Shown here: positions 905-54,951 of the stretch, piece after piece
How positions within the stretch are numbered: the stretch's first letter is position 1
Layout: every line of letters starts with the position of its first letter
Translations under genes and position numbers: made by a program
Notes under the pieces: generated by a model
Databases searched by the model: none
Seen by the model: the letters and a program-made list of their open reading frames with translations, nothing else
Told to the model about the DNA's origin: nothing
DNA from: an uncultured Pseudomonadota bacterium
Lineage (GTDB): Bacteria; Pseudomonadota; Alphaproteobacteria; RF32; CAG-239
DNA length: 64,000 bases
NCBI GenBank assembly: GCA_902763155.1
Contig: CACWQS010000002.1
Span: 137,566-201,565 of the forward strand
Direction of reading: 5' to 3'

Positions 905-979
905 TGGTGATCCCAACGGGATTCGAACCCATATTGCCACCGTGAAAGGGTGATGTCCTAACCATTAGACGATGGGACC
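905..979 (-). tRNA. tRNA-Glu (anticodon UUC), CCA encoded
   Basis: Reverse complement GGTCCCATCGTCTAATGGTTAGGACATCACCCTTTCACGGTGGCAATATGGGTTCGAATCCCGTTGGGATCACCA. 7-bp acceptor stem; anticodon loop CUUUCAC; T-arm GGTTCGAATCC. Confidence 0.85.
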
Positions 980-9198: not shown

Positions 9199-9336
9199 AT
9201 TATCTTCCTAACCTAAATTCATTACAATCTTGGCAAACTATAAACCGCTACAAAATATTTTGCAATAAAAATATCTTGCAACACAAACCAAAATATTGTA
9301 GTTATAATTATACATAAACTCGTTGTGGAGGATAAT

Positions 9337-10023
9337 ATGGCAACACAATTTTCTCACTTAAAATATATTTATTTAAGTTTACTTTTTTCTTTAAGCATCA
9401 CTTTTCCGGCTTTTGCCGATGTTTGTTTTTTACCTGACGGCACATGTATGTCCGGTATAAAGATGGAAAAGCAAACGCTTGGTTCAGATGATGATTGTTC
9501 CGGCTATGGTGCTAAGAAAAACGGGAAAGGTTGGGATTGTTCGGATACCTGCCGTGCTCACGGGAATTTGTATTATAATTGCGTCGAAAAAAAGTGCACT
9601 TCTGGCTACACTCCGGGAATTAGCAGTTGTGAAGATGGTTATGTTTTTGATAGCGACAATTCTTATTCAGGCGACTTACTCTGCGGTAGGTGCTTAGAAG
9701 ATAAGTGCCCTAATGGTTCACACTTAAGCCAAGAATGCGAAACTGCCGGATATCTTCCAGTCCAAACCCAATACTACGTAGAAGAATACCCTTGCTATAT
9801 GTGTGTAAATGATAATTGTGATACCGGCTTTAGCAAAAAATGTAATTCTGAAACAGAATTGGCGCTAAAAGTTCAACACACCCAATACGGTTCTATATGC
9901 TACAAATGTTGTAATAATGTTTGTAGTAGAGGTTCTTTAGACGAGCCGATTTGTGATAGCGGAAAAACTTCACAAGAAGTTTCACGCACTGGTTGCGATA
10001 AACCATGCTATGAGTGCCGCTAA
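9337..10023 (+). CDS. secreted cysteine-repeat protein
   Basis: Signal peptide MATQFSHLKYIYLSLLFSLSITFPAFA. The mature part holds about 5 tandem repeats of about 25 aa, C-x-[EN]-[DK]-x-C-x2-G-x4-6-C-[ED]-x-G-Y, with over 30 Cys. RBS GGAGG. Confidence 0.6.
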   Translation: MATQFSHLKYIYLSLLFSLSITFPAFADVCFLPDGTCMSGIKMEKQTLGSDDDCSGYGAKKNGKGWDCSDTCRAHGNLYYNCVEKKCTSGYTPGISSCEDGYVFDSDNSYSGDLLCGRCLEDKCPNGSHLSQECETAGYLPVQTQYYVEEYPCYMCVNDNCDTGFSKKCNSETELALKVQHTQYGSICYKCCNNVCSRGSLDEPICDSGKTSQEVSRTGCDKPCYECR

Positions 10024-11215: not shown

Positions 11216-11360
11216 ATTTGCTCCTAAAAAACATAAATTATTCACATAAGACAAGGTTGAATATATCACATTTTTCGACCTAAATCCAGAGGAAAAATGC
11301 AAAAAAAAATAAAATATTTTTTGCTTGCATTTTAATTCTGCCGTTTTAATATAATCATTG

Positions 11361-11517
11361 TCGGCAGGTGTTCTGCCGATGGAGTATCCTAACTCCTTAA
11401 GAGAAAAAATCTCCGTCTAAGGGGAGCCGGCGAAATATATTGAATACGCCGGACTGCTCTCTTACAGTTAGGAACTCCCCTTGCTTTGCATTAAAGCAAG
11501 GTTTTTGTTTAACTTAA
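11361..11517 (+). ncRNA. candidate structured small RNA / cis-regulatory leader
   Basis: Sigma70-like promoter: -35 TTGCAT, -10 TATAAT at 11350-11355. Small hairpin CGGCAG-GTGTT-CTGCCG. A long-range stem pairs GGAGTATCCTAACTCCTTAAGAGA (11381-11404) with TCTCTTACAGTTAGGAACTCC (11458-11478) and encloses two internal hairpins. Ends in terminator hairpin CCTTGC...GCAAGG + TTTTT (11479-11516). Confidence 0.3.
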
Positions 11518-11536
11518 CAAAAGAGGAGTTCTGAAA

Positions 11537-11767
11537 ATGATAAATAATACAATAACATTTGATGAAAATACTATGCATGAAATCGGCAAAGGATTGTGGC
11601 TGGCACGCCAGGAAAAGCATTTGTTTATATATCAGGTAGCAAAACGCTCTCGTGTGCCGATAGATTTAATTGACACAATGGAATTGGGGAAAGCTATAGA
11701 AGACAATGCTCTGATTAAATTACTTAAATTTTACGGCAAAAAAATACGGATTGTAATTGAGGATTGA
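11537..11767 (+). CDS. small XRE-family HTH protein
   Basis: 76 aa. HTH segment LARQEKHLFIYQVAKRSRVPIDLIDTMELGK. RBS GAGGAG. Confidence 0.55.
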   Translation: MINNTITFDENTMHEIGKGLWLARQEKHLFIYQVAKRSRVPIDLIDTMELGKAIEDNALIKLLKFYGKKIRIVIED

Positions 11768-12041
11768 TTTTACTTATAATATTTATACTATTATTTAATA
11801 AGAAAATAATTGATAGCTATGAGCCATAGATGTTATAAAAATCATAGAGTGTATTTCTGTATTTGAAATGCACTCTATTTTTTTCACGTCATACTGACAC
11901 TGAATGACAATGAAGTGGAAGTATCCAGTAATGCCTATAGCATTACATCGTTTCAATGAAACTTTTAATTAAATTTTGTATTAACCACCGAAAACCGTGC
12001 GCTAAACCGTGCGGTTTTCGCATTTTAAAAGGAAAAATAAA

Positions 12042-12533
12042 ATGAGTAATTTATATAAATTCAATCAAGACACGCAAATTGATGAATTTGGTGTCGACCA
12101 TTCCAATTTCTCGCTACGAGATGAAATTGAGTATAACACTATGCGGGCTAATCAATCTATGCCCAAACAGCAAAATCCGGTAAGACAAATTGTTGGCGCA
12201 GTTGCGGATATGACGCGAAATTATTTCGATATGAAACGTGATAACACTGTTGGTGCCGATGACTATTTTCATTGTAAAGCCAATTATGAAGCCGCAAATC
12301 ATGGACCATGGGGCGAATTAACAGCACAAATTGTTGGTGATACTAAAGAAGGATTTGACTATTTAAAAAATAGGTTTTACAAAGGATTTAGCTATCCGGA
12401 TGCTTTATCTGATTATTTGCACGACAAAGATGTTAATCTACAAGGGCGACAATTATCAAAGAATCCGTTGTACTCTAACTCAATAGAAGCTTGTCAATAT
12501 CAACGAGTAAAAGATATAAATGAGAAATATTAA
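12042..12533 (+). CDS. serum amyloid A (SAA)-like domain protein
   Basis: Core VADMTRNYFDMKRDNTVGADDYFHCKANYEAANHGPWGELTAQIVGDTKE aligns by eye to the vertebrate SAA core [54 protein letters not shown]. The C-terminus ends ...EKY, as vertebrate SAA does. No signal peptide. Start chosen at MSNLYK (RBS AAGGAAAA). Confidence 0.6.
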   Translation: MSNLYKFNQDTQIDEFGVDHSNFSLRDEIEYNTMRANQSMPKQQNPVRQIVGAVADMTRNYFDMKRDNTVGADDYFHCKANYEAANHGPWGELTAQIVGDTKEGFDYLKNRFYKGFSYPDALSDYLHDKDVNLQGRQLSKNPLYSNSIEACQYQRVKDINEKY

Positions 12534-54874: not shown

Positions 54875-54951
54875 TGGTCGGGGCGACATGATTCGAACAC
54901 GCGACATCTTGGACCCAAACCAAGCGCTCTACCAGGCTGAGCTACGCCCCG
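54875..54951 (-). tRNA. tRNA-Pro (anticodon UGG), CCA encoded
   Basis: Reverse complement CGGGGCGTAGCTCAGCCTGGTAGAGCGCTTGGTTTGGGTCCAAGATGTCGCGTGTTCGAATCATGTCGCCCCGACCA. Acceptor CGGGGCG/CGCCCCG. Anticodon loop UUUGGGU. Confidence 0.85.

Follow-up and report, generated by a model that had tools for sequence, protein, structure and literature searches.

Within a 64,000-nucleotide stretch of DNA from an uncultured alphaproteobacterium (contig CACWQS010000002.1, positions 137,566 to 201,565), which as a whole is called the window here and whose own numbering is used throughout, a strongly structured RNA of ~150 nt with its own promoter and terminator lies at 11360-11510, immediately upstream of a small gene for a helix-turn-helix (HTH) protein of the XRE type. 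All of its features can be read directly in the sequence of 11311-11540, and all are on the + strand. The promoter (11311-11355) comprises an A/T-rich, UP-like tract, a -35 element TTGCAT at 11326-11331 that is preceded by a C, an 18-nt spacer and a -10 element TATAAT at 11350-11355. From 5' to 3', the fold then runs through a hairpin, P0, a long helix, P1, that closes a three-way junction of P1b, P2 and P3, and an intrinsic terminator. P0 (11360-11380) pairs GUCGGCAG with CUGCCGAU around a GUGUU loop in the RNAfold prediction. The 5' strand of P1 (11381-11394) reads GGAGU-A-UCCUAACU, of which GGAGU resembles a Shine-Dalgarno (SD) sequence and is near invariant, and the 5' strand of P1b (11398-11404) reads UAAGAGA, so that the complete long-range stem sets GGAGUAUCCUAACU plus UAAGAGA (11381-11404) against UCUCUUA plus AGUUAGGAACUCC (11458-11478); an unpaired C separates the two 3' segments, and the same stem was also found as an inverted repeat. 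Enclosed by it are P2 (11410-11426; UCUCCG, a loop and GGGGAG, with the family consensus ACUCCUC...GGGGAG), P3 (11427-11452; CCGGCG paired with CGCCGG around the 14-nt loop AAAUAUAUUGAAUA at 11433-11446) and the junction strand J3/1b (11453-11456), ACUG. The terminator (11479-11510) consists of a 10-bp stem with a 3-nt loop (11479-11501) and the U-tract UUUUUGUUU (11502-11510). It is followed at 11511-11536 by a spacer, whose A-rich AACAAAA (11516-11522) is complementary to the U-tract, and by an extended SD, GGAGUUC (11525-11531), whose exact complement, GAACUCC, forms the last 7 nt of the P1 3' strand. The XRE-type open reading frame (ORF) of 76 aa starts at the ATG at 11537 and ends with its stop codon at 11767. 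A terminator scan places a terminator-like hairpin, with a 14-bp stem (11844-11878) and TTTTTTT, at 11844-11885, where it closes the RNA-HTH unit 5' of a gene resembling serum amyloid A (SAA).

For the window RNA, the minimum free energy (MFE) and centroid structures of RNAfold coincide, and both are the structure described. The MFE of -65.4 kcal/mol compares with -38.2 +/- 4.0 in 200 dinucleotide shuffles (z = -6.86), not one of which was as good. An earlier note on this DNA had proposed a TTGCAT/TATAAT promoter, a long-range stem around two hairpins, an intrinsic terminator and, just beyond it, the ribosome binding site of the HTH gene. All of these stand: the promoter elements recur at a fixed spacing across the family described below, the stem with P2 and P3 appears both in RNAfold and in covariation, the terminator is called by an independent terminator scan and covaries as well, and GGAG lies at 11525-11528, ahead of the ATG. 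Its inventory of hairpins was correct for the two enclosed ones and left out P0. The earlier note also saw no signature motifs of the TPP, cobalamin, SAM, glycine or FMN riboswitches, and in a scan of the whole window against Rfam 15 at the gathering threshold only two tRNAs were returned, while at E values up to 10 no family covered the whole RNA on the + strand. The best-scoring match, SQ2397 ('cis-regulator of HTH transcription factor'), had 25.8 bits where gathering requires 100, lay mainly over the A/T-rich promoter and ended at 11396, and was taken as chance. Rfam scans of eight other copies of the RNA, and of the Brt loci of Bartonella that are compared at the end of this text, gave no matches or no consistent ones. 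The RNA matches no known riboswitch class and no Rfam 15 family, and represents an uncatalogued family.

In a collection of 5.8 billion proteins the HTH ORF of the window has only eight relatives, with 67-97% identity, and those with a named source come from 'Alphaproteobacteria bacterium' metagenome-assembled genomes (MAGs). Upstream of each orthologue lies an unannotated gap of 300-540 bp that holds the same RNA, in spite of differing flanking genes (carD in the window; thyA, or queH and uvrA, in relatives). The check by covariation that the earlier note had suggested for orthologous leaders came out clearly: in seven distinct protein-anchored leaders, aligned with MAFFT and folded with RNAalifold into the stem and hairpins of the note, compensatory changes occur at 25 of 45 pairs, and ACUG of J3/1b is invariant. 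A covariance model built from these seven (R1) finds one copy in the window, at 161.8 bits; neither R1 nor a sequence pattern detected a second copy of the RNA in the 64 kb, and no second member of the HTH family was found there. That pattern, GGGGAG-N-AATATATYGAATA-N-ACTG, was run over one genome per GTDB species and returned at least 115 DNA stretches; among the matches listed, all derive from MAGs of uncultured rumen or gut Alphaproteobacteria. The total stands at no fewer than 128 copies in about 35 MAGs, with at least 10 in UBA3307, 9 in RGIG4780 and 8 in RGIG4347. The units are monocistronic and lie among unrelated housekeeping genes, usually with a convergent gene next. Matches were absent from plasmid and phage collections (blastn with the window RNA), from IMG/VR viral contigs (pattern scan), and from the regions upstream of XRE orthologues in Azospirillum, Asticcacaulis and Sinorhizobium (R1). 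The earlier note was thus right that a structured leader exists, and missed that it belongs to a multi-copy family tied to paralogous XRE genes.

R1 matches 106 copies in 100 loci, with scores of 66-165 bits, including two that the pattern had missed. When these copies are aligned to the model, 97.8% of cells are paired and double changes are seen at 35 of the 45 pairs; the covariation score is 0.606, compared with 0.202 for shuffled alignments and with no more than 0.10 after displacing partners by 1-3 columns. Nearly every helix contributes: compensatory changes affect all six modelled pairs of P0, eight of the 13 pairs of P1 (98.3% paired), all six of P1b, which supply the top mutual-information pairs, all six of the P3 stem and seven of the eight modelled pairs of the terminator. 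P2 is nearly invariant, with G-C/G-U changes only. A mutual information scan with average product correction (MI/APC) placed every top pair inside the nested fold, extending P0 and P1b by one pair apiece, and returned no pseudoknot or tertiary pairs. A small ORF inside the RNA (ATG at 11379, 13 codons) was rejected as a coding candidate, its ATG being missing in most copies. This is a genuine structured RNA, whose fold has strong covariation support. Conservation at the DNA level, of HTH operators or palindromes rather than of RNA structure, would be in keeping with the palindromic AATATATT core of the loop and the palindromic pair TTTTGTTT...AACAAAA, but it sits badly with 35 of 45 helix positions that change on both sides while Watson-Crick or G-U pairing, including strand-specific G-U pairs, is kept, and with a conserved loop that in one subtype is split by a 20-nt covarying hairpin. 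We give this explanation almost no credence, and for the helices it is effectively refuted.

Because GGGGAG, the P3 loop and ACUG were part of the search pattern, a second pattern based on P1 and P2 and ignoring P3 was run on a metagenome collection. It detected 33 copies, in samples from the rumen and the human gut; 17 carry the canonical loop, and six deviate only in its middle, giving the consensus AAUAU-NNN-(G/A)AAUA. The P3 loop halves are also kept (GAUAUAA ... CGAAUAA) in 13 human-gut copies that have a covarying hairpin inserted between them, and two of these, when folded, gave z = -8.0 and -5.2. The insertion argues for a structural motif at the RNA level, and against a DNA operator. 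These 13 copies constitute subtype 2 (within L137-L168; e.g. L138, 416-625), their XRE proteins are longer (79-116 aa) and carry C-terminal tails, and their UAA/GAA flanks are reminiscent of the UAA/GAN internal-loop motif. Across the loop-independent set, the downstream genes again encode XRE proteins, of 74-116 aa, with two exceptions (L162 and L166). Three structural subtypes exist in the family; in a subtype seen in L024, L033, L064, L072, L079, L084, L114 and L117, GGUGU...ACAUC replaces GGAGU...ACUCC on the 5' side of P1, changes that would keep both a local 5' hairpin and P1, and R1 scores are lower (82-94 bits).

The copies also show a mosaic pattern of evolution. Copies within UBA3307 are near-identical in promoter, P0, spacer, SD and HTH gene; their differences lie in the central part of P1, in P1b, in the P3 stem and in the terminator, and are fully compensated. 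These stem 'alleles' reappear in different combinations across genomes, as in the copy at L075, which carries the P1 and P1b alleles of the window (161.5 vs 161.8 bits) upstream of a different paralogue. A family that is multi-copy and mosaic could be a selfish or addiction-type repeat, either a mobile cassette of ~500 bp or a toxin-antitoxin (TA)-like pair, and its layout formally resembles that of type III TA loci. We regard this as very improbable, since the units have no terminal repeats or tandem RNA repeats, adjoin no transposase or toxin-like gene, encode an XRE DNA binder instead of an endoribonuclease, have no copies in IMG/VR viral contigs or in the phage and plasmid collections, and are stable as orthologous units across species. 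Two further loci show what appear to be rearrangements: in L114 (HGM16772, human gut) two truncated, partly duplicated RNA fragments lie beside one full unit, and in L115 (5212-5417, - strand) the 5' two-thirds of an RNA apparently run straight into the C-terminal portion of an HTH ORF, as a deletion would leave them.

Promoter, spacer and SD are preserved together with the RNA. In 115 copies the promoter has the consensus aaattTtt-cTTGCa-N17-tTTAATATAA at a fixed distance from the RNA, made up of a UP-like AAATTTTT, a -35 element CTTGCA/TTGCAA and a -10 element TAATATAA at fixed spacing, and conservation ends ~65 nt upstream of P1. A generic promoter scan does not call the promoter of the window because its -35, TTGCAT, is a weak match to TTGACA (3 of 6 positions). 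Judged by this conservation, the unit of RNA and XRE gene is probably driven by a sigma-70-type promoter. Only ~25 nt separate the end of the U-tract (11510) from the ATG (11537), with the SD at 11525 between them; a scan match in this interval (TTAACA-16-AATGAT) was rejected as a separate HTH promoter, since it overlaps the start codon and is unconserved. Given the short gap, and the conservation of promoter, spacer and SD as one block, the XRE gene appears to have no promoter of its own. The SD itself, GGAGUU, is at least 90% conserved in 110 copies; such an extension is not general in this genome, being found at only three of the 25 GGAG SDs of other window genes. The U-tract and the A-tract 5' of the SD show G/C to A/U co-changes in a few copies.

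Sufficient downstream DNA to judge the partner gene was available for 100 of the 128 copies. In 88 of these an intact XRE-type ORF follows the terminator, the ~25-nt spacer and the SD, encoding 73-80 aa in 84 (one of 101 aa) and 163-164 aa in four; the remainder are four XRE pseudogenes, three ORF-less first copies of tandem pairs and five decayed or orphan copies. The proteins form several divergent types of paralogue, with 20-84% identity to that of the window. The window protein on its own has no Pfam match, and 29 of 35 paralogues match HTH_25, HTH_31, HTH_3 or HTH_19. A family profile, searched against solved structures, finds the N-terminal domain of BldD (2ewt; 1.4e-6), followed by HigA, DdrO and SinR. 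By these similarities, the partner belongs to the XRE / Cro-CI helix-turn-helix family. The joint inheritance of RNA and gene would suit a protein-binding leader, in which the XRE protein, as an autoregulator, or a common RNA-binding protein acts on the loop or junction to control termination or translation; the AAUAU/GAAUA loop contains an 8-nt self-complementary core, AAUAUAUU, and might serve as a protein or kissing site. This is improbable in our view, for the profile fits XRE DNA-binding domains (the BldD N-terminal domain, HigA, SinR), the same RNA nucleotides are conserved across paralogues with differing predicted recognition helices, identical proteins occur with different stems inside one MAG, and the locus has no linked gene for an RNA-binding protein.

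What we favour, with modest confidence, is a transcription-attenuating leader that is freed as a stable RNA, in which access to the SD depends on P1, and which makes up a two-part module with the XRE gene. By default, P1, P2 and P3 would fold, the terminator would form and most transcripts would stop at the U-tract, so that terminated transcripts would accumulate as a stable RNA of ~150 nt and expression of the XRE gene would be kept low, the protein being made from read-through transcripts only. In read-through transcripts with P1 closed the SD would be free, and with P1 open the 3' strand of P1, GAACUCC, would pair with the SD, GGAGUUC, and mask it. Read-through, the opening of P1, or both would be set by a common input, which might be an RNA, a protein or a small molecule and would act on the conserved junction and loop, so that all of the paralogous XRE regulators of a genome would be gated together. 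The released RNA is probably also trans-acting, and such an additional role is likely because orphan copies have been retained with their structure. Of the steps in this scheme, it is SD masking by the 3' strand of P1 that proves robust in the folding models. Across the family, the helix between SD and anti-SD, GGAGUU(C)/(G)AACUCC, has a mean contiguous length of 7.1 bp. With P1 formed, the unpaired probability of the SD is 0.38 (0.75 in the window); blocking the 5' strand of P1 lowers it to 0.05 and shifts the SD into pairing with the 3' strand of P1, at 0.85 per nucleotide and a cost of only ~8 kcal/mol.

Default termination is favoured by the modelling: in a transcript truncated before the 3' arm of the terminator, the probability of P1 is 0.86 and that of an antiterminator, between the terminator 5' arm and the P2 3' strand, is 0.003. 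Several results weigh against the scheme. Under crude constraints a forced antiterminated fold is ~26 kcal/mol worse, and no thermodynamically competitive antiterminator was found in silico. Regulated read-through is therefore not evident from modelling of the sequence, and the terminator may simply be leaky. The alternative pairings covary weakly: the position 5' of GGGGAG and the third one after CUCC, which would associate in the antiterminator, are paired in 75% of copies vs 47 +/- 3% in shuffles, a comparison that does not control for phylogeny; in the SD/anti-SD helix, position three is paired in 84% vs 76% in shuffles; and a local 5' hairpin, GGAGU/ACUCC, is possible as a competitor of P1, with just seven compensatory cells. 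The invariance of GGGGAG, the P3 loop and ACUG in L015-L129 is partly imposed by the search pattern, and termination, read-through and RNA stability are all things that we infer. Finally, orphan RNAs, RNAs beside decayed HTH genes and two copies in front of secreted proteins that are not of the XRE type show that this RNA is more than a cis leader.

Orphans occur in tandem arrays, where a first copy with its own promoter and terminator, and no ORF, lies ~75 nt upstream of a complete RNA-HTH unit (L020, 6500-6654; L060, 4578-4732, - strand; L080, 2056-2211; L071, 5599-5757). The first three are those counted in the census, the fourth being too near the end of its block, and three species keep the arrangement, their orphan copies differing from one another by compensatory changes. 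Elsewhere (L036, L067, L107 and L122) the XRE genes contain in-frame stops or have lost their start or SD, and the adjoining RNAs still score 134-156 bits; here the XRE partner decays while the RNA remains intact. At L162 (1949-2200) and L166 (47-290), variant P3 loops are followed by proteins with signal peptides instead of an XRE gene, with a longer spacer and no GGAGUU SD. Such copies raise the question of whether the family consists primarily of trans-acting small RNAs (sRNAs), the ~150-nt RNA being the product, which would pair through its ACUCC-type strands (three per RNA) or its loop with targets, especially the GGAGUU SDs of sibling units, and the XRE protein being made by terminator leak. 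Besides the separate promoter and terminator, this account would explain the ORF-less tandem copies with their compensatory stem changes in three species, the intact RNAs beside pseudogenes, the copies before unrelated secreted proteins, and an SD that is common to all paralogues and complementary to invariant segments of the RNA; moreover, Brt1 of Bartonella is reported to regulate badA in trans (PMC5387305). However, the anti-SD segments are buried in the very stable P1 and P2 helices, not displayed in loops, the exact cis arrangement with fixed spacing to the XRE start in 88% of copies would be needless for a pure trans sRNA, and no targets were identified. As the primary function we consider this possible, and rather less probable than not; it is compatible with the leader that we favour.

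A small-molecule riboswitch would be a special case of the cis-regulatory leader with a metabolite as the input: the junction, with its A-rich joining strand and ACUG, and the AAUAU/GAAUA loop would form an aptamer, whose ligand tunes P1 and P2 and thereby termination and access to the SD. The covarying helices around conserved unpaired nucleotides are aptamer-like, a variable hairpin is tolerated within the conserved P3 loop, an expression platform of terminator and SD-masking strand lies directly 3', and Brt1 has been reported to respond to haem concentration (review PMC8070961). Nevertheless, we find a riboswitch doubtful. The associated genes are only XRE regulators, so that no transporter or enzyme gives a clue to a ligand, the antiterminator is uncompetitive in silico, and orphan copies without a downstream gene are retained. 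Linkage to a single metabolic or transport pathway was not found: 88 of 100 copies precede XRE genes, the rest are orphans or have pseudogenes, and in the metagenome set two precede genes for secreted proteins. For metabolite riboswitches it is atypical to occur five to ten times in a genome, all on one gene family, and a multi-copy family tied to paralogous XRE genes makes a classical single-pathway riboswitch less likely, pointing instead to the Brt/Trp type. The earlier note's choice between an sRNA and a riboswitch or attenuator remains the right set of options. A bolder extension of the attenuating leader, which we offer as speculation and think unlikely, is a class of sensor RNAs in which the three-way junction and the AAUAU/GAAUA loop bind one signal, a metabolite or a cellular factor, and gate an XRE family of 5-10 or more members per genome in parallel, while the ~150-nt product acts in trans through its ACUCC strands on the GGAGUU SDs of siblings; Brt/Trp would then be a convergent or an extremely diverged instance. 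If this were true, the sensor RNA would be a 'master input' for a family of transcription factors.

The SAA-like gene (12042-12533, +) encodes a serum amyloid A domain (Pfam PF00277, E = 1.9e-17), and the earlier note had placed it in one operon with the HTH gene. That grouping does not hold up, as the SAA-like gene follows the unit in the window only and in none of the relatives, where it is unlinked to RNA and HTH gene, and in the window the terminator-like hairpin at 11844-11878 lies between. Directly upstream of the SAA-like gene (11985-12030, +), a direct repeat of two AAACCGTGCG units (11992-12013) sits within an inverted repeat, CGAAAACCG...CGGTTTTCG, that is followed by CATTTT; these repeats could be a hairpin, a terminator or a regulatory site. 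Further upstream, an ORF at 9325-10023 (+) encodes a cysteine-rich protein of 232 aa with an N-terminal hydrophobic segment and no Pfam match, and a counterpart of 228 aa is present in the two closest relatives (L001 and L002). The two tRNA genes of the window are at 908-979 (-) and 54878-54951 (-).

With regard to known systems, the family resembles orphan riboswitch candidates and attenuator leaders in its covarying junction fold with conserved unpaired nucleotides, in the intrinsic terminator followed directly 3' by the SD of the controlled gene, and in the use of one strand for both the closing helix and the SD-masking helix. It differs from them in that its regulon comprises just one family of paralogous transcription factors, present in high copy number and with orphan copies, and in that neither a competitive antiterminator nor a clue to a ligand was found. 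The alpha-r14 ('cuckoo') and CcsR1-4 RNAs are multi-copy alphaproteobacterial anti-SD sRNAs, often tandem paralogues with their own promoter and terminator, which are simple two- or three-hairpin molecules with CCUCCUCCC motifs in their hairpin loops. Shared with these are the paralogous copies and the C/U-rich motifs of CUCC type that complement SDs; here, in contrast, the CUCC strands lie in stable three-way-junction helices and the RNA is tied in cis to an XRE gene. In ToxIN, a type III TA system, a promoter, a non-coding RNA, an intrinsic terminator and a protein gene succeed one another, and the terminator sets the ratio of RNA to protein. The likeness is confined to this order of elements, as the RNA here contains no array of short tandem repeats and the protein is an XRE regulator, not a ToxN-type endoribonuclease.

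The closest counterpart is the Brt/Trp system of Bartonella henselae, in which nine RNAs of 194-203 nt each lie 10-18 nt upstream of an XRE gene (Tu et al. 2016, PMC5387305). The Brt RNA is abundant and the trp genes are poorly transcribed, Brt1-9 are 74-100% identical and recoverable by BLAST, the copies cluster in a plastic region of 277 kb, and copy number ranges from 0 to 34 per Bartonella genome in a family reported as genus-specific (PMC5387305). Deletion of the 3' stem-loop of Brt1 de-represses trp1 (PMC5387305; PMC8070961), and a review has suggested that Brt1 responds to haem (PMC8070961). Both systems occur in Alphaproteobacteria. In each, a highly structured RNA of 150-200 nt begins with a 5' hairpin, continues with a long helix that closes a multi-branch junction and finishes in a 3' stem-loop, and an XRE HTH gene without its own promoter comes directly after it on the same strand. 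Common to both are also a high copy number (0-34 per genome in Bartonella, at least 5-10 in the present hosts), XRE pseudogenes and orphan RNAs in some instances, and a CUCC-type segment that can pair with the SD. They differ at the 3' end, where Brt has a GC-rich hairpin that includes the SD and no clear U-tract, while the present family has a canonical intrinsic terminator, a spacer and then the SD; in their proteins, which here are mostly of 73-80 aa and have no pairwise similarity to Trp1; and in genomic setting, the present units being scattered among housekeeping genes and Brt clustered.

Genuine Brt loci were reached by tblastn with the 164-aa class of XRE proteins, through a Bartonella plasmid HTH protein and the Bartonella XRE proteins, to L131-L133, whose three Brt upstream regions align at 82% mean identity. 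Run with filters off on Brt loci (L130-L133), R1 gave at most 16 bits (15-16), inconsistently between copies, compared with 82-165 bits for full-length members of the present family, and no motifs common to the Brt loci and the present family were seen. Likewise, blastp of the window HTH protein detected no similarity to the 118-aa protein taken as Trp1; Trp1 (118 aa) and Trp4 (128 aa) of B. henselae were assigned from size and source name. Only the 163-164-aa XRE class, found behind four copies, resembles the Bartonella plasmid HTH protein of the Trp family (56% over 41 aa), and the two systems may share a deep ancestry. At the 3' end of Brt (L130, 28760-29000; L131 and L132, 985-1200), the SD of the trp gene (GGGG) is set against CCCC/CUCCC around a GCGAGGGCGCUCGC hairpin, which from its sequence suggests that the SD is sequestered in Brt as well. 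The Brt RNA is itself absent from Rfam 15. By analogy, we regard the present RNA as sharing the architecture and the proposed logic of Brt, and not as demonstrably a member of the Brt family. Tandem modules of an RNA and an XRE gene were previously known only from Bartonella, where they were described as genus-specific. The present family is an independent and much better resolved case, with >100 diverse copies, near-complete covariation, a clean terminator and a defined SD-masking strand; it adds to the known RNAs a well-supported family that is lacking from Rfam, and its consensus structure now offers precise nucleotides to mutate. Its hosts are abundant, uncultured Alphaproteobacteria of the rumen and human gut, and if a common ligand or factor exists, one RNA sensor would control a whole family of transcription factors. 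Since an independent family is present outside of Bartonella, the RNA-XRE architecture appears to be a recurrent alphaproteobacterial solution, rather than an oddity of that genus.

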